From IMG/VR virus record IMGVR_UViG_3300021560_000013, positions 1 through 64,000 of that record: a DNA stretch of 64,000 nt. One strand, 5' to 3'. The position numbers were made by a program, and so were the translations under genes. This DNA is from a virus. Below, piece by piece: positions 5,348-61,661 of the stretch; positions within the stretch are counted from its first letter, which is position 1; each line of letters starts with the position of its first letter. The notes beneath the pieces were generated by a model. The model did not search any database, was not told the origin of the DNA, and was given only the letters and a program-made list of their open reading frames with translations.

Positions 5348-5406
5348 TAGCGCGCATCGTGCGCTATGCTCTAGGTGGGGCCGAGAGAGCCCAACGACCG
5401 AGGAGA
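5348..5406 (+). promoter_or_regulatory. Cassette-head element 4
   Basis: TAGCGCGC-ATC-GTGCGCTA + TATGCT; hairpin GGGCCGAGAGAGCCC; CGACCGAGGAGA at 5395-5406. Confidence 0.85.
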
Positions 5407-5602: not shown

Positions 5603-5928
5603 CCGAGGAGTTCCGCAAGAAGTTCGACCCGTCGCAGTGGCGGGTCCTGCACCCGCAGCAGTTCGTGGACAAGCGCATGCAGTTGCGCCGCCCCGAGCGC
5701 GGCGGGCTCGTTCGCTACGGCGTGCGCGCCTACAGGGGCGCGATCGTCCGCAAGGGCGACGACGGCAAGCCGCAGCACGCCACCTGCAACCACGCTCACA
5801 GCAAGCCGGGCGCAGCGCGCAAGTGCGCTGAGCAGGAGGCTCGCAAACGCAATCGTGCGCTGGCGCGCGGCGTCCCTGACGGCGTGCCCGGCGGCTACTA
5901 CGGACAGGCGAAGGAGGTGACCGAATGA
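5599..5928 (+). CDS. Hypothetical protein (CxHxH...C motif)
   Basis: ATGA coupling. Confidence 0.7.
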   Translation: MTEEFRKKFDPSQWRVLHPQQFVDKRMQLRRPERGGLVRYGVRAYRGAIVRKGDDGKPQHATCNHAHSKPGAARKCAEQEARKRNRALARGVPDGVPGGYYGQAKEVTE

Positions 5929-6125: not shown

Positions 6126-6174
6126 CACACGCCGTGTGCTAGGATCATTCTAGAATCAACCCGACCGAAGGAGA
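6123..6174 (+). promoter_or_regulatory. Cassette-head element 5
   Basis: Perfect arms TAGCACAC-GCC-GTGTGCTA + TAGGAT; leader variant CCCGACCGAAGGAGA at 6160-6174. Confidence 0.85.
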
Positions 6175-12720: not shown

Positions 12721-12766
12721 GAGCGCACGTCATGTGCTAAGCTGGGTAGGCACCCGACCGAGGAGG
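12721..12766 (+). promoter_or_regulatory. Cassette-head element 7
   Basis: GAGCGCAC-GTC-ATGTGCTA + TAAGCT; CCCGACCGAGGAGG at 12753-12766. Confidence 0.85.
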
Positions 12767-13127: not shown

Positions 13128-13192
13128 TAGCGCACGACGTGTGCTATACTCTAAGCGGAGGCCGAGAGAGCCTCCACCCCCGACCGAGGAGA
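13128..13192 (+). promoter_or_regulatory. Cassette-head element 8
   Basis: TAGCGCAC-GAC-GTGTGCTA + TATACT; hairpin GGAGGC...GCCTCC; CCCGACCGAGGAGA at 13179-13192. Confidence 0.9.
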
Positions 13193-19687: not shown

Positions 19688-19747
19688 CGCACGTTGTGTG
19701 CTATACTCCTGGTGGAGGGAAAAGCCCTCCATCCCCGACCGAGGAGG
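19685..19747 (+). promoter_or_regulatory. Cassette-head element 9
   Basis: TAGCGCAC-GTT-GTGTGCTA + TATACT; hairpin TGGAGGG...CCCTCCA; CCCGACCGAGGAGG at 19734-19747. Confidence 0.9.
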
Positions 19748-20769: not shown

Positions 20770-20972
20770 AGTACGACGACACCGCCACCGACGTGCTCAC
20801 CGAGCGCCCGCCCTGCGACATCTGCAAGCAGCGTCCGGCGTACGCCGACGGCAAGACGACGATGGGGCCGTGGGCGTATATGTGCGCCCCGTGCTTCGAG
20901 ACGTACGGGATCGGGCTCGGCATGGGCCGAGGCCAGCGGATCCTGATCAACCCGACCGAGGAGGACACATGA
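20766..20972 (+). CDS. Small Zn-finger protein (CDIC...CAPC, GLGxGxGQ)
   Basis: GTGA coupling; motif. Confidence 0.7.
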   Translation: MKYDDTATDVLTERPPCDICKQRPAYADGKTTMGPWAYMCAPCFETYGIGLGMGRGQRILINPTEEDT

Positions 20973-51198: not shown

Positions 51199-52457
51199 TG
51201 GCTGCCGTCAACCTCACCCCCAGCGCCGGTGCTGCCACCCAGGCGCTCGTGACGCTGTACGCGCCCGCGAAGGTGTTCTTCACCGCGAGCGCAGCTGCCG
51301 CCACGGCAGCGCTCGCCTCGCCGTCCACGCCGGTCACCGGCAACGGGCTGCCCCAGTCGATCGACCCGCTGGCGATCTTCTCCGACGTGAACACGCCCGA
51401 CTTGGAGCCGCCGGATCTGCTGTCCGAGGTGCCGCCCTTCGAGCAGAACTCCTACGAGATCCAGGCGGTGCTCGGCGTTGTCGCGAACGAGCTAGCGCGG
51501 ATCGAGGCGGCGCAGCAGGCGCTCGTGAACAACTTCTTCCCAGCGTCCGCCGACGCGCTGCTGCCGATCTTCGAGTCGCTGCTCGGCCTTCCGGTCGCCC
51601 CGCCGGGGCTCGACATCGGCACACGCCAGCAGATCGTGCTCGCGTACATGCAGCGGCTGAAGTCAGGCGGGCGCGGCCTGGACTGGATCAACGCGCTGAG
51701 CGCGCTGGCGGGCGTGAGCTTCACCTACCAGGAGCACCTCACCAACCCGATCACGAACCTCTGCACCAACGGCTCGTTCGAGCAGGACGTGGTCGGTGCC
51801 CTGCCCGCCGGGTGGAACACCGCCCCCGGCTACTGGATCAACACGGGCGCGACAGTCACCAAGCAGACGACAGGCGGCGGCTATGTCGGCGCGAGCGCGA
51901 TGCGGATCGTCACGCCCGGCGTCACCACACTGACCGGGGCGAAGTTTCCGATCAATGTGACCGCCGGTCAGCCGATGACGGTCAGCGCCGCGTTCAAGGG
52001 CGCTGCCGGGGGCGAGCAGATCCAGCTGGGCATCGGAGACGCGGTTGTCGGCTGGGCGTCAACCGCCGCCGTCACGCTGAGCACCGGCTGGCAGGTCTTG
52101 ACCACCACGCTCACGCCGACGGCCAGCGGCTCGACCTTCGTCGGGATCCGACAGAACCAGGCGAGCTACCCGGCGGTCACGTTCTACGTGGACGCCGTGA
52201 TGCTCGTCAACGGCTCCTCGGCCCCGGCCTACGCCGACGGCGATTCGCTCGGCTACCAGTGGTCCGGCGCGGCGGGGAACAGCACCAGCTTCCAGTCCTC
52301 GCCGCCCGCGAACACCGTCCTGGTCAAGATCCCGTCGGCGCTCGCCGGTGTCGGCTGGCCGTACATCCGCGACATCACCCCGGCTCACATCGCGATCCAG
52401 CAGGGCTACACCGACGGGTTCTTCGTCGGCATCACGAACATCGGGAGCAACCTATGA
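51198..52457 (+). CDS. Baseplate wedge XkdT/YmfQ (DUF2313)-like protein with inserted CBM-like domain
   Basis: FFPASA...FESLLGL...RQQIV; ITPAHI. Confidence 0.7.
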   Translation: MAAVNLTPSAGAATQALVTLYAPAKVFFTASAAAATAALASPSTPVTGNGLPQSIDPLAIFSDVNTPDLEPPDLLSEVPPFEQNSYEIQAVLGVVANELARIEAAQQALVNNFFPASADALLPIFESLLGLPVAPPGLDIGTRQQIVLAYMQRLKSGGRGLDWINALSALAGVSFTYQEHLTNPITNLCTNGSFEQDVVGALPAGWNTAPGYWINTGATVTKQTTGGGYVGASAMRIVTPGVTTLTGAKFPINVTAGQPMTVSAAFKGAAGGEQIQLGIGDAVVGWASTAAVTLSTGWQVLTTTLTPTASGSTFVGIRQNQASYPAVTFYVDAVMLVNGSSAPAYADGDSLGYQWSGAAGNSTSFQSSPPANTVLVKIPSALAGVGWPYIRDITPAHIAIQQGYTDGFFVGITNIGSNL

Positions 52458-53587
52458 GCAAGCACCGCCAGCTGGTCTACGGCGCGCCCATTCCCCAGGA
52501 CTTCCTGGACGCGCTCCAGGAGTTCATCGGCATGGCCCACTCGGGCCTGCAGCTGTCCGTCGTCACGCCGGGCACCGCCAGCCAGCCCGCCAACCAGGTG
52601 CAGGTCGCTGCCGCGTCCGGCAACAGCCAGGTCGGCATCGCGATCAACGGACTGTGGCGCTACGTCGCCTCACCGCCCGCGCCGATCTCGATCTCGGGCG
52701 CGCCCGGCACCTACGACATCTTCGCCTGCACCGGCAACAACAGCTTCAGCGTCAACGCGACGCCACCGCCGCCCGAGCTTGACGCGACCGACTACACGTT
52801 CACACTCCAGGCGCTCCCCCAGGGCAGCACGCCGACGAGCCCGCCGAACTACCGCAAGATCGGGGAGTGCGTGTTCGACGGCACGCGGATCCTGTACCTG
52901 CGCCAGACGCTCGGCGGCGGCGACAGCTACCGCCAGTTCCAGGCGGGCGACCTGAAGCTGTCCGCCGTCGCGAGCCCGCCGCCGGGCTGGCTGCTGTGCG
53001 ACGGGACCGCGTACAGCCGGGCGACGTACGGCGTCCTCTACGCCGCCCTGGGAGGGTCAGCCTCGCCGCACGGCCAGGGAGACGGCTCGACTACCTTCAA
53101 CGTGCCGGACTACAAAGGCCGCGTTCCGATGGGCGTCGGCACCGCCGCCGGGGCAGCCGGGGCTACCAGCCACACGCTCGGAGCCAAGGGCGGCGAGGAG
53201 ACCCACGTACTGCAGAACGCCGAGATGCCCAGCCACAGCCACGGCGGCTTCGACGGCTACGCCTCGACCGACCACTACCACTACGGCGGCACCAGCAACG
53301 ACTCGCCCGACCATGCGCACAACCTGTCGCTCTCGGCCAACAACTCGCCCGTCACCCAGTCGGGCGGGCAGGGTTGCGCGACGATCGGCGGCGGGTCGAG
53401 CACCAGCGGCGCGACCGCCCGGCACTCGCACACGTTCACGACCTGGTGGCAGTCCCAGACGCGCAACAGCTACGACGGCTCGGTCTCCGACCCGAACCAC
53501 CGTCACGCGATCAGCGCCGACGGCGGCAGCGGCCCTCACAACACGCTGATGCCGTACACCACCTGCAACGTATTCATCAAGTTCTAG
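52454..53587 (+). CDS. Short tail fibre with collar domain
   Basis: PPGWLLCDG...SRATYGVLY...GDGSTTFNVPD...GGEETHVL...HNTLMPY...FIKF. Confidence 0.85.
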   Translation: MSKHRQLVYGAPIPQDFLDALQEFIGMAHSGLQLSVVTPGTASQPANQVQVAAASGNSQVGIAINGLWRYVASPPAPISISGAPGTYDIFACTGNNSFSVNATPPPPELDATDYTFTLQALPQGSTPTSPPNYRKIGECVFDGTRILYLRQTLGGGDSYRQFQAGDLKLSAVASPPPGWLLCDGTAYSRATYGVLYAALGGSASPHGQGDGSTTFNVPDYKGRVPMGVGTAAGAAGATSHTLGAKGGEETHVLQNAEMPSHSHGGFDGYASTDHYHYGGTSNDSPDHAHNLSLSANNSPVTQSGGQGCATIGGGSSTSGATARHSHTFTTWWQSQTRNSYDGSVSDPNHRHAISADGGSGPHNTLMPYTTCNVFIKF

Positions 53588-53630
53588 CTCACGACGTAAC
53601 ACATGCTGCGCGCTCGTGTATCCTGTGAGC

Positions 53631-53712
53631 ACACGAGGACCCCGAACGCAACTCTCCTCGGTCGGGATTGAAACGTCCGGGCCTCTGAAACGGCTCCTAC
53701 GGGAGCCGTTTC
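53631..53712 (+). ncRNA. Candidate antisense sRNA complementary to the conserved cassette leader
   Basis: TATCCT at 53619-53624; hairpin 53635-53685 with loop CTCTCCTCGGTCGGGA; then a terminator-like hairpin. Confidence 0.6.
53687..53712. terminator. Hairpin between convergent operons
   Basis: GAAACGGCTCC-TACG-GGAGCCGTTTC (UNCG loop). Confidence 0.7.
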
Positions 53713-53761
53713 GCCTTCCAGGGCCAGGTACCGGGTGGGGGCTCGGAGGGGCGCAGCGGGC

Positions 53762-54073
53762 TCAGGCGGCGCTCTGGGGGGCCTTCTGGGGCCATAGCCC
53801 CGCCATCCGCTCGCGCGCCCCGGCGGTCGTCCAGATCGTCACACCGAATGACGGCGGCGAGCCGATCCGGCACTCGCCTTCGAGCGTCAGCCACTCCAGG
53901 CGCGGCCTGCCGTCCCGGTCCTCCAGGTCCATCGGGTCAAGGCACCGGCGGCGCGTCTCCGGATCGCTGGAGCGGTAGTCGCCCGTCCGGTGGATGTCGA
54001 ACGCCTCGACGGAGTGGAAGTGCCTGCCGCAGGCACTGCAATGGTTGGTGCAGGTGACGGTCTTAGCTGGCAA
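53762..54073 (-). CDS. FDxHR-type Zn-binding protein
   Basis: HCSACGRHFHSVEAFDIHR. Confidence 0.7.
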   Translation of the reverse strand: MPAKTVTCTNHCSACGRHFHSVEAFDIHRTGDYRSSDPETRRRCLDPMDLEDRDGRPRLEWLTLEGECRIGSPPSFGVTIWTTAGARERMAGLWPQKAPQSAA

Positions 54074-54995
54074 CGGGCTCCTCGACCGCCTCGCCCTCGA
54101 TCGGGATCGAGCCCCCGTTGCGCAGCACGAAGTCCGTTACCTCCTGCAGGATCTCCGTCCGCTTCGCCAGGTCCGCCCCGGCGAGCTTCAGCCGCACCTT
54201 CTGGGGTAGGAATGATCCGGGCCGGACACGGTTCGCCTCAGCGAACGCCACCTGCAGCTGTCGGGCAAGCTCGTCGTCCGGCCCCCAGTCAGGCTCCTGG
54301 TCGATCGGCGCGCCCAGGTCGATGATCCCGCCGAGCTTCTCGTCGTAGCGTGCGCCCACCTCGTCCTCGGGGATCAGCCCGGTGATCGAGAACTGCTTGC
54401 GGAGCACCATCGACTCGGCGCACTTCAGGATCATCGCGTCCGGGTACTTGCCCCAGGACTTCTTCATGTTCGGGCGGTTGTACTGGGCGAACTTCGCCAG
54501 GAAGAACGTCGGCACGCGCACGCCCCGGTAGCACATCGCCCACGCGCCGACGATGTTGCCCTTCAGCCGCTCCTCGGCGGCGATCTCGTCGTAGGTGTGG
54601 ACGAACCCATCCTTGGTGCGGGCGATCTTGTCGGTGGCGTAGATCACGTCGCCGTTCATCCCGCCGAAGTCGTCGTAGCGGTTCGCGATCGCGAGCAGCC
54701 CGTCGCGCGAGACGATTGTCACCCACGTCGGCTCCTCGCCGTCGCGGCCCGGCATCTTCGCCAGGTACACCTGCCCGGCGAACGGGTCGAGCTTGTAGCG
54801 CCCCGTCAGTTCGAGGAACATCAGGAACGCGTTGTCGTCCGCGCCGCGAGCGACCGTCCGCTTCATCAGCGCCAGCTGCTCGTTGTCGAACGCGAACCGC
54901 GCCGGACGCGTCAGCGGCGTCGGCATCGCGCGGACGATCATGCCGGGGTTGTCGCCCGGCGGGGCCTCCGGGGGGGCTGTCTCGGTCTCAGCCAT
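54063..54995 (-). CDS. bet: RecT/Bet-family single-strand annealing recombinase
   Basis: FLEL..RYKLDPF..QVY, VSRDG...IA, VGAWA, W.KYPDAMILKCAES..LRKQF. Confidence 0.85.
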   Translation of the reverse strand: MAETETAPPEAPPGDNPGMIVRAMPTPLTRPARFAFDNEQLALMKRTVARGADDNAFLMFLELTGRYKLDPFAGQVYLAKMPGRDGEEPTWVTIVSRDGLLAIANRYDDFGGMNGDVIYATDKIARTKDGFVHTYDEIAAEERLKGNIVGAWAMCYRGVRVPTFFLAKFAQYNRPNMKKSWGKYPDAMILKCAESMVLRKQFSITGLIPEDEVGARYDEKLGGIIDLGAPIDQEPDWGPDDELARQLQVAFAEANRVRPGSFLPQKVRLKLAGADLAKRTEILQEVTDFVLRNGGSIPIEGEAVEEPVAS

Positions 54996-56208
54996 TGCCT
55001 GCCTTTCTCGCTTCCACCTGCGCCAGCGATGCCTCCAGCTGGCGCAGCAGTTCGTCGTCTACTTCCTCGGGCACGATCGGAGGCTTCGGGATGTGGATGT
55101 CGAACCGCGTCCCGATCTCCTCACGGTACAAGTCCTCGATCGACTCGCCCACCTGCAGGCCGCGCTCCAGCTGCTCCATCGTCGGGCGCGCCACCCGGCG
55201 CTGCACCCGATGGCCGTACACCCGGTTCGCCTTCGCGTCCTTCACCGGGATCGGACCGTGAACCGACGCCCACGCCTTCGCCGCCTCCTTGTTCTGCTTG
55301 ATCGCCTTCTCGGCCACCAGGATCTGAGCGACCACCTCCTCAGCCTCCTCCGCGTTGCGGATGCGGCCCCGACGGCGCGCCGTAGGGAAGATCGGGCACG
55401 CCGTCGGGCGGGGGCAGTGGCCGCAGTGGTTACCCGGCGAGGGATGCCAGGTCTCCTCCTCGACCGAGCGGTCGAAGCGTTCGATCAGCGCCGACATCGT
55501 CAACTCGATCTCGTCCAGCTGATCGCGATACAAGGTCGCCTGTCGTGGCTGGGAGTAGCGGGGGTAGAACTCGCGCAGCGTGATCGACGTGAGCGGCGCG
55601 TGGTTCTTGAAGCCGAGCAGCGCGTAGGCCCGCTGCTGGAAGAAGCCCGACTCGGAGATCTCCGAGGGCGGCGGCAGCCACCAGCCGGTCTTCCAGTCGA
55701 TCACGATCCCGTGCTCCAGGTTCTCGCCTTCCGCGAACAGCGCGTCCAGCTGGCCGGTGAACACCCGGTCCACCTGCCCGCCGTACGGGTTCGGGTAGCG
55801 CACGACCGTGTCCAGCCGCTGCTCGATGTCCACCAGCCCGGCGATGTTCCACTGCGTCTCGGAGGCGAACTTCTTCGTCATCCACAGCAGATCGTGGATC
55901 TCGGACATCGGCACGTTCACCATGTCCGCGATCGGCACGTCCGCCTGGCGCAGCGTCTCCAGCATGATCGCGAGCGCTACGTCCACCTCGATGCGCTCCT
56001 CGCCGTGCGCGGCCATCTCCCGCAGCATCTTCGCTGCCGCCCGGTGCCAGATGATCCCCCGGCCCGACGCCGCGTCCGAGAACGTCTTGCGGTACCGGCG
56101 CTCGAACAGGCTCATCAGCCCGCACTCGTCGTAGTCCGACAGGGTGCTTTGCCGGACCCTCGGGAACTCCTCCAGCGCCTTCGGATACGGCGTCGCTGCT
56201 ACCACCAC
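54988..56208 (-). CDS. PD-(D/E)XK RecB/Cas4-like exonuclease
   Basis: GQLD...IVIDWKTG, Q...YAL, HCGHCP...CP; conserved leader at 56216-56227. Confidence 0.85.
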   Translation of the reverse strand: MVVAATPYPKALEEFPRVRQSTLSDYDECGLMSLFERRYRKTFSDAASGRGIIWHRAAAKMLREMAAHGEERIEVDVALAIMLETLRQADVPIADMVNVPMSEIHDLLWMTKKFASETQWNIAGLVDIEQRLDTVVRYPNPYGGQVDRVFTGQLDALFAEGENLEHGIVIDWKTGWWLPPPSEISESGFFQQRAYALLGFKNHAPLTSITLREFYPRYSQPRQATLYRDQLDEIELTMSALIERFDRSVEEETWHPSPGNHCGHCPRPTACPIFPTARRRGRIRNAEEAEEVVAQILVAEKAIKQNKEAAKAWASVHGPIPVKDAKANRVYGHRVQRRVARPTMEQLERGLQVGESIEDLYREEIGTRFDIHIPKPPIVPEEVDDELLRQLEASLAQVEARKAGNG

Positions 56209-56364
56209 GGGGGTGCCTCCTCGGTCGTTACAGGGAGGCTCGCACGTCGATCGGACGGAACCGCGATCCGTTTCCCGCAGGGTCCGCGACGGCGGTTAGT
56301 CTCCTCGAAGTGTCCCGACCGAAACCCTCCTCCAGCACTCCCGCGAAGCTGCCCCTCTGAGCCC

Positions 56365-59722: not shown

Positions 59723-59796
59723 GCCCGGCTCAATCGCCGTGATGCTCACGCACAAGCGTCAGCGGACCGGCGTCTACCAAGGGTGGTGAGTGGCTT

Positions 59797-60510
59797 GTGA
59801 GTGCCACTGAGCAGGAACCTGCCGACCAGCAGGACGGCCAGAAGGATCTGTCGTTCAGCGAACGAGTCGCGCTCGACGTGCTGGCGATCTTCGCCGCCCG
59901 CGACATGATTGCTGACGGCGCGGTGGACATGTACGCCGTAGCCGACGAGATCCAGCCCACGATCTTCGACGCGAAGGTCAAGGTCGAGGGCGACCGTTCC
60001 AAGGTCGGAGTCACACCGTCTCACCTGATGGACAAGCACTTCCCCGAGGTGCCCAAGCGCGACAGCGTGGACAGCACCGACGCGGATCTCCTGGACTACA
60101 CCGACGCGGTCTACGCCAAGGTGAAGGACCAGGTGTTCCGAGTGTTGAACATCATGCCGGACGGCATCATCCAGTCCCGCCTCGCCTCCGCGCTGGGCGA
60201 AGGCTGGGTGCTGTGTCGCATGAAGGGCAAGCGCGGTGCCGAGGAGGTTGCGTACGTCTCTCGCAGCCGCAAGTGCATCGACGCGGACAACAACGGCCCG
60301 GCGTACCACCGGGTCCAGCTGGCTATCGCTCGCGCGTCGGCACTGACCGGCATGTCGATCGAGCGGGTGCCCGAGCACGGCACCTGGTTCCAGCGGCAGC
60401 ACAAGCGGTCGCTGAAGAACAGCCTCGAAGCCGGTGACAACGTGGTCATCGCGGCGCTCGACTCGGGGGACGAACCCGACGACGGCCCCGACGAGGACGA
60501 CGATGAGTAG
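59797..60510 (+). CDS. Hypothetical protein
   Basis: ORF track. Confidence 0.7.
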   Translation: MSATEQEPADQQDGQKDLSFSERVALDVLAIFAARDMIADGAVDMYAVADEIQPTIFDAKVKVEGDRSKVGVTPSHLMDKHFPEVPKRDSVDSTDADLLDYTDAVYAKVKDQVFRVLNIMPDGIIQSRLASALGEGWVLCRMKGKRGAEEVAYVSRSRKCIDADNNGPAYHRVQLAIARASALTGMSIERVPEHGTWFQRQHKRSLKNSLEAGDNVVIAALDSGDEPDDGPDEDDDE

Positions 60511-61613: not shown

Positions 61614-61661
61614 CTCTCCTTGGTCGGGGTCCACCTAGAGTATAGCGCACGATGTGAGCCA
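61614..61661 (-). promoter_or_regulatory. Cassette-head element 10 (in front of the HTH gene)
   Basis: Minus strand TGGCTCAC-ATC-GTGCGCTA + TATACT; leader CCCGACCAAGGAGAG. Confidence 0.85.

Follow-up and report, generated by a model that had tools for sequence, protein, structure and literature searches.

What is the sequence of a ribosome-binding leader doing, in antisense, at the tip of a hairpin that starts no gene? The question arises in the window, by which we mean the whole 64,000-nt stretch of DNA analysed here, that is, the first 64 kb of the 110,271-bp IMG/VR virus record IMGVR_UViG_3300021560_000013 (68% GC; 89% complete). Directly after the tail-fibre gene of this phage lies a compact module consisting of a conserved box, a hairpin whose loop is the reverse complement of a leader found ahead of many start codons, and a terminator-like hairpin. 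The module is a real, conserved, single-copy element and, judged from its sequence, it is most likely a plus-strand anti-leader RNA. In the explanation that we favour, with confidence only somewhat better than even, a plus-strand RNA of ~80-110 nt, transcribed from a promoter of its own and/or forming the 3' end of the late tail transcript, would pair with the leaders and most likely block their translation.

The hairpin module and the leader that it mirrors

The module occupies the 174-nt gap between the stop codon of the tail-fibre gene (53587, plus strand) and a convergent minus-strand operon (53762), and its parts are the following:

53615-53625, plus strand: conserved box CGTGTATCCTG, with the -10-like hexamer TATCCT at 53619-53624 (conservation)
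53635-53685, plus strand: two-tier imperfect hairpin with the anti-leader at its tip (RNAfold; covariation)
53652-53666, plus strand: anti-leader CUCUCCUCGGUCGGG, which on the minus strand reads as the leader CCCGACCGAGGAGAG (exact match; central CGGUC predicted unpaired)
53687-53712, both strands: perfect 11-bp GC-rich hairpin GAAACGGCTCC-UACG-GGAGCCGTTTC, terminator-like (RNAfold; conservation)

Most of this anatomy had been proposed in the original prediction, made from the sequence alone, and was found as described. The -10-like TATCCT is present; the stems GAGG/CCTC (53635-38 / 53682-85), CCCG/CGGG (53641-44 / 53678-81) and ACG/CGT are where they had been placed; the hairpin of the UNCG class proposed behind them proved to be a perfect 11-bp stem with a UACG loop; and the loop sequence CTCTCCTCGGTCGGG at 53652-53666 is the exact antisense of the leader, with 0 mismatches. 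The proposal of a fully open 16-nt loop did not survive folding, as RNAfold predicts a 4-bp mini-stem (UCCU/GGGA) that leaves CGGUC as a pentaloop. These five bases have an unpaired probability of 0.9-1.0, and opening the whole seed costs 6-7 kcal/mol. The fold z-score of -3.4 is owed mostly to the terminator hairpin, which carries a short U run and would serve as a bidirectional terminator, for the small RNA or tail operon on the plus strand and for the RecT operon on the minus strand. A small inverted repeat, CTCGTGT (53613-19) / ACACGAG (53631-37), contains the TATCCT box, which we read as the predicted promoter of the small RNA. A consensus scan for promoters and terminators returned no sigma-70 promoter and no T-rich terminator; it demands a -35 element and a long T run, both of which are absent from these elements. 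The Rfam search over 53400-53900 (cmscan, E<=5) gave no family match, a single noise match to Fibrobacter-1 having 14 bits.

The leader is the 13-nt sequence CCCGACCGAGGAG, which contains the Shine-Dalgarno (SD) core GAGGAG and is continued by AG in the loop copy. It has 13 exact copies in the 110-kb genome against 0 for the reversed control pattern, and 12 of the 13 are followed, 5-11 nt downstream, by ATG or GTG and a coding-like open reading frame (ORF). The exception is the copy in the module, 53666 on the minus strand, where TTG is 2 nt and GTG ~19-21 nt away, so that the claim of a copy lacking a properly spaced start was borne out. Matches with up to 3 mismatches number 17, compared with 8.1 +/- 2.8 in shuffled sequence. 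The leaders of the window are these:

12753-12765, plus strand: exact leader copy, as an example, with GTG 5 nt downstream
2091, 3909, 5393, 6160, 7717, 13179, 19734 and 20951, plus strand: other leaders before gene starts, the one at 6160 being the variant CCCGACCGAAGGA
56229, 61628 and 63997, minus strand: other leaders before gene starts

All 12 leader sites that had been predicted are real, each with ATG or GTG 5-8 nt downstream and an ORF rich in GC at third codon positions. The estimate of about 12 leader genes was too low for the genome, of which the window covers 64 of 110 kb: counting the variants in the first three bases (~12 variants), there are ~24-27 genome-wide. The leader is always oriented with its gene and is confined to non-structural genes, with no gene-start copy in the head-to-tail structural block at ~21.3-53.6 kb.

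Many of the leaders stand in a cassette, in the order palindromic box, -10 box, CTAGGTGG, short 5' hairpin and leader. The palindrome, probably an operator, is imperfect and of the type TAGCGCACG-N-CRTGYGCTA, its final TA opening the TANNNT -10 box; the design is also found in the relatives G003-G005. The leader copies at 20951, 74324 and 7717 have no promoter nearby. The cassette palindromes identified from sequence are as follows:

13128-13150 and ~2061, 3851, 5348, 12721 and 19685, plus strand: cassette palindromes
~61661, minus strand: cassette palindrome

Between promoter and leader, many cassettes carry short GC-rich 5' hairpins (e.g. GGAGGCCGAGAGAGCCTCC), as at 13157-13175, 19710-19730 and 5375-5392. 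The loop CGAGAGA is shared by two cassettes, and the 3' arm CCUCC is itself anti-SD-like.

Conservation of the module in related soil phages

The same module was found in 15 further soil-phage contigs, giving at least 16 instances with the window, through a search with RecT only, in which the motif was not used, and through motif scans. The RecT-only search returned 7 viral contigs with 71-79% amino acid identity, and in all seven, downstream of the RecT operon, a terminator hairpin is followed by one that displays the leader motif in its loop. A RecT profile search for more distant relatives returned the same 7 contigs, and a gapped motif scan of viral contigs gave no further module. The motif scan of metagenomes yielded mostly chance matches, and 2 modules were added among the matches listed. 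Synteny is constant, with a ~380-aa tail-fibre gene upstream on the anti-leader strand, which stands ahead of most of the modules and was overlooked by the ORF filter in a few contigs, and convergent genes downstream.

The 15-nt core CTCCTCGGTCGGGAT is identical in 16 of 16 modules, while the flanking stems differ. The inner stem occurs as GCCGAG/CTCGGC, GTCGAG/CTCGAC, GCTGAG/CTCAGC and GUUGGG/CUCGGC, and 8 of 11 pairs are compensatory in the alignment of 16 modules fitted with a covariance model. The covariation score of 0.305 compares with 0.197 in shuffles (0 of 500 reach 0.305) and with at most 0.129 when the partners are slid, in an alignment that, being fitted to the structure, somewhat favours it. 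The terminator keeps GAAACGG...CCGTTTC in nearly all modules and its inner stem pairs co-vary. Insertions and deletions in the stems disrupt any reading frame. The covariance model gave one strong match per genome in 5 records, namely the genome of the window and 4 relatives; its weak matches in L128 and L129 were rejected as modules, as they proved to be an ordinary leader of the opposite strand and a site unrelated to the module.

The 3 complete relatives (122-125 kb) carry 20-23 exact 12-mer leaders each, and 0 of the control pattern. The original prediction had named relatives with the leader and without the hairpin as evidence against it, and none was found among the complete genomes. As no complete genome has leaders or module alone, the two travel together. 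The fragments G006 and G007 have leaders and no module, which is uninformative as they are only 16-23% complete. The co-variation between loop and leader that the original prediction had asked to look for was not seen: the two are co-conserved only, both being invariant in every relative found.

Two relatives show additions to the region. In L086 (7640-7725, plus strand), the -10 box and the main hairpin are separated by a ~40-nt insertion that includes an additional hairpin, which brings the predicted RNA to ~146 nt. In the relative L009 (L069 ~5797-5830, minus strand), a further small hairpin GGCCGAATCGGC follows the tail-fibre stop codon and precedes the -10 box. Its role could be to terminate the tail operon ahead of the small RNA gene, or to stop minus-strand read-through as a second terminator.

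The genome around the module is that of a myovirus-like phage, as Pfam and PHROG matches to baseplate J, a Mu gp48-like protein and a tail-collar fibre indicate, and GenBank phages, actinophages included, gave no useful DNA or protein similarity to it. The genes that flank the module are the following:

52454-53587, plus strand: tail-fibre protein with a tail-collar domain, the last late gene (PF07484 Collar, E=5.7e-15; tail-fibre PHROGs)
53762-56208, minus strand: convergent RecE/RecT-type recombination operon (Pfam and PHROG matches)
54988-56208, minus strand: PD-(D/E)XK exonuclease (Pfam/PHROG)
54063-54995, minus strand: RecT (Pfam/PHROG)
53762-54073, minus strand: small FDXHR-type zinc-binding protein, last gene of the RecT operon (Pfam/PHROG)

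The RecT operon is headed by a leader copy of its own at 56217-56229 (minus strand), the variant AACGACCGAGGAG. PF00589 (tyrosine integrase) had no match in G000, the genome of the window, or in 3 complete relatives; PF00239 (serine recombinase) had none in G000. Direct terminal repeats occur in two of the complete relatives. On these three grounds an immunity system is unlikely, no search for a repressor as such having been made, and these 110-125-kb phages are probably virulent.

Strand, pairing and competing explanations

Three features point to the plus strand as the one transcribed, namely the conserved box, its likeness to the cassette promoters and the position of the terminator. In 15 of 16 modules a TG(n)TANNNT box (TGTATCCT, TGTTATGCT, TGTATGCT or TGTAAGCT) precedes the motif by 26-35 nt, and in L086 by 71 nt; it is conserved where the sequence around it varies. 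The window and the 3 relatives nearest to it share the 11-mer CGTGTATCCTG unchanged while their flanks differ, and in the remaining 12 modules the box reads TGTTATGCT, TGTATGCT or TGTAAGCT. It is similar to the cassette promoters of the phage itself (TGTGCTATCCT / TATGCT-CTAGG), including the CTCTAAG/CTCTAGG that follows, and is without their full palindromic operator. The base of the hairpin starts 6-13 nt after the box, where a transcript would begin, and the terminator follows within ~10 nt of the hairpin. Read on the minus strand, the hairpin sits behind that terminator, with no room for a promoter.

The predicted energies fit a specific partner. The 13-bp duplex of loop and leader reaches -27.5 to -28.7 kcal/mol and the leader variants -20 to -26, compared with -8 to -10 kcal/mol for a plain GAGGAG or GGAGG site; with the cost of opening subtracted, the RNA would therefore bind the tagged genes and not ordinary ribosome-binding sites. 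The leader genes, as had been forecast, top a genome-wide duplex ranking, which is near-circular and has a high background (median -22). The further idea that the helix-turn-helix-like gene (leader at 61628, with a central A) escapes found no basis, as its duplex of -22.7 kcal/mol is no weaker than that of accepted variants (-20 to -23).

As for mechanism, the plus strand after the tail-fibre gene would encode a structured RNA of ~82 nt here and 80-110 nt in the relatives. Transcription would start ~6-8 nt after the TG-TANNNT box and/or be read in from the late tail operon, which is possible because nothing terminates between 53587 and the module, and the RNA would end at the GC-rich terminator hairpin. 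The pentaloop CGGUC would make first contact with GACCG, the non-SD part of the leader, so that the CCCGACC stretch would provide both specificity and this initial contact. Pairing would then extend over GAGGAG and mask the ribosome-binding site. Joint translational repression of the ~25 leader-tagged genes would be the likeliest outcome, preferred over activation or decay, and it would plausibly be strongest late in infection, while the tail operon is transcribed; as the module ends the late operon, a late shut-off of the non-structural genes is suggested. While the anatomy, conservation, single copy, synteny, stem covariation and calculated pairing energies are observations, transcription of the plus strand, pairing in vivo and a repressive effect are what we infer from them. 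The anti-leader interpretation of the original prediction is supported in part, by the conserved single-copy module, the plus-strand box, the terminator and the non-structural leaders, and loses the escape of the helix-turn-helix gene and the open loop.

Several observations weigh against this interpretation. Added up over the modules, the hairpin energies are -288 kcal/mol for the tail-fibre strand and -307 for the RecT strand, and the hairpin of the window is about as stable on one strand as on the other. Across the alignment, 16 G-U cells are valid on the plus strand only and 9 A-C cells on the minus strand only, which does not settle the strand: the wobble pairs of L012, L014, L188 and L086 lean to plus, and those of the window itself and of L010 lean to minus. 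The box has no -35 element, and its TG abuts the -10 hexamer in the window as well as in the 3 relatives closest to it, unlike the canonical TGn spacing. Should this promoter and those of the targets belong to one class, a simple late shut-off would require the read-through route. Within the loop, 8 of 13 seed bases are predicted to lie in the mini-stem. Since neither the loop nor the leaders vary, co-variation between them is absent, and such invariance would be compatible with a shared protein ligand as well. The sequencing runs that contain 52600-54600 are soil DNA metagenomes only, with no RNA run among them.

The best of the competing explanations, which we still consider improbable, makes use of several of these points. 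In it, RNA reading through the RecT terminator would carry the minus-strand copy as a mimic of the leader and titrate whatever binds leaders, be it a RegA- or CsrA-like phage regulator or 30S subunits. The hairpin is at least as stable on that strand, where alone the G-U pairs of the window and L010 exist; its loop there contains the leader in full, GGA/GGAG included, and in no case comes with a start codon; and one shared ligand fits the invariance of both loop and leaders. Small RNAs that arise by read-through behind a terminator are known as well, as described for rrA/rrB/rrF in PMC8144298. Such a decoy would nevertheless have to be made directly behind a strong 11-14-bp terminator, and in most relatives it would lack a defined downstream 3' end. 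It leaves the conserved TG-TANNNT box on the opposite strand unexplained, on the minus strand A-C mismatches make up half of the inner stem in L012, L014 and L188, and no candidate for the binding protein was identified. A minus-strand gene behind the leader copy was rejected, since a start codon 4-13 nt after GGAG is found in 0 of 16 modules; the 191-aa minus-strand ORF (53057-53632) is antisense to the tail-fibre gene.

It is very unlikely that the module acts in cis only, as a 3'-end structure that ends or stabilises the late tail mRNA and insulates the convergent operons, its leader-like loop being a by-product such as a captured cassette fragment. The junction is indeed convergent with a bidirectional terminator, and fragments resembling leaders and promoters are jumbled together in the region, as they might be in a relic of recombination. 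A relic would decay, whereas 15 nt are invariant here although RecT is only 71-79% identical and the stems have changed. This invariance among altered stems is also why we rejected a degenerate leftover leader. A stabiliser would have no need of a specific loop sequence, nor of a TANNNT box kept at a fixed distance.

The least likely reading of all, in which the 13-mer is an asymmetric, stoperator-like DNA site for a phage protein and the start-less copy halts leftward transcription into the tail genes, can call on the many copies each oriented with its gene, on a start-less copy directed like the operon that precedes it and on the precedent of stoperators (13-bp, asymmetric, oriented and dispersed, as cited in PMC3203893), and meets the fixed 5-8-nt spacing to the start codon and the embedded GAGGAG, which point to translation, the promoter-less copies named above, the co-varying stems, which imply selection on single-strand folding, the improbability of an immunity system on the grounds given above, and the separate palindromic operator that the cassette promoters already have.

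Parallels in known systems and significance

For the plus-strand anti-leader RNA, the closest parallel to the leader side comes from the SAS/ESAS (start-associated) sequences of Cluster K (Weiservirinae) mycobacteriophages, in which a 13-nt asymmetric motif with an SD core precedes 11-19 non-structural genes, 3-9 nt from their starts (Pope et al. 2011, PMC3203893). Conservation of SAS exceeds what pairing with 16S rRNA accounts for, a promoter-bearing inverted repeat often precedes it, and K1 phages have one reverse copy away from gene starts, which was not interpreted there (PMC3203893). Its function was open in 2011 (PMC3203893) and was still called unclear in 2024-2025 (PMC11373665; PMC12699233). 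The leader described here is likewise a 13-nt motif with an SD core near many start codons, in one orientation and on non-structural genes only. It is an analogue and not a member, as the consensus is GGGATAGGAGCCC in Cluster K and CCCGACCGAGGAG here, and as the conserved extension lies 5' of the SD core here and on both sides of it in SAS. The phages themselves are unrelated: ours are 110-125-kb, myovirus-like and without an integrase found, whereas those of Cluster K are 60-kb temperate siphoviruses.

We found that the reverse SAS of phage Anaya (JF704106; L157 34871-34883) sits in the apical loop (10 nt) of a 17-bp hairpin, which lies in the non-coding DNA that separates gp96 from gp97, on the strand of all the neighbouring genes. 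The element (L157 34795-34910; record ~59,794-59,909) comes directly after a strong 16-bp hairpin. It is conserved in 133 Cluster K phages, with the hairpin retained in diverged ones. In Amgine the hairpin loop has drifted (GGGCUUCCCUUCCC) while SAS is unchanged, and because of this the parallel is suggestive and not proof; the loop of DarthP also differs.

By mechanism, the nearest described RNA is the c4 antisense RNA of P1/P7 (Citron & Schuster 1990), presented in the review PMC12197685 as a 77-nt, trans-acting RNA whose loop sequences pair around a ribosome-binding site and block translation. The loop of the module is similarly complementary to the ribosome-binding region of its targets, over 13 bp, a pairing established in silico only. 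As presented in that source, c4 has a single target, the ant message of its own operon, and a role in immunity, in contrast to the ~25 dispersed targets with a private leader considered here. The c4 model of Rfam (RF01695) had no match in the module region (cmscan, 53400-53900). Among cellular RNAs, 6C RNA of Actinobacteria and RsaE/RoxS are Gram-positive, Hfq-independent small RNAs in which a C/U-rich apical loop pairs with GGAG-type sites of several mRNAs. They use short seeds against generic G-rich tracts, whereas the seed here is an exact 13-nt match specific to phage genes. The leaders also resemble the stoperators of Cluster A, which as cited in PMC3203893 are many asymmetric 13-bp sites oriented with transcription; these, in that account, work at the DNA level by way of the immunity repressor, and their distance to start codons is not fixed, in contrast to the SD-containing motif, fixed spacing and co-varying hairpin of the present system.

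The known phage antisense RNAs c4, sar and OOP each target one message, and a 2025 review of phage small RNAs, together with our literature searches, describes no phage-wide leader regulon. We propose, tentatively and judging the idea a little likelier to fail than to hold, that a private SD extension tags the entire set of non-structural genes and that through it one master anti-leader RNA switches ~25 genes, and that the same principle may explain the SAS of Cluster K. If true, this would be a regulon-scale translational switch of ~25 genes, undescribed for phages in the searchable literature, and it would explain why the leader is conserved beyond the SD core, a question that has been open for Cluster K SAS since 2011. 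Although the phage of the window is uncultured, the idea can be tested directly in Cluster K phages of Mycobacterium smegmatis, which have the parallel hairpin and are cultivable, and a 13-nt tag with its cognate RNA would be a compact orthogonal pair for translation control in high-GC hosts.

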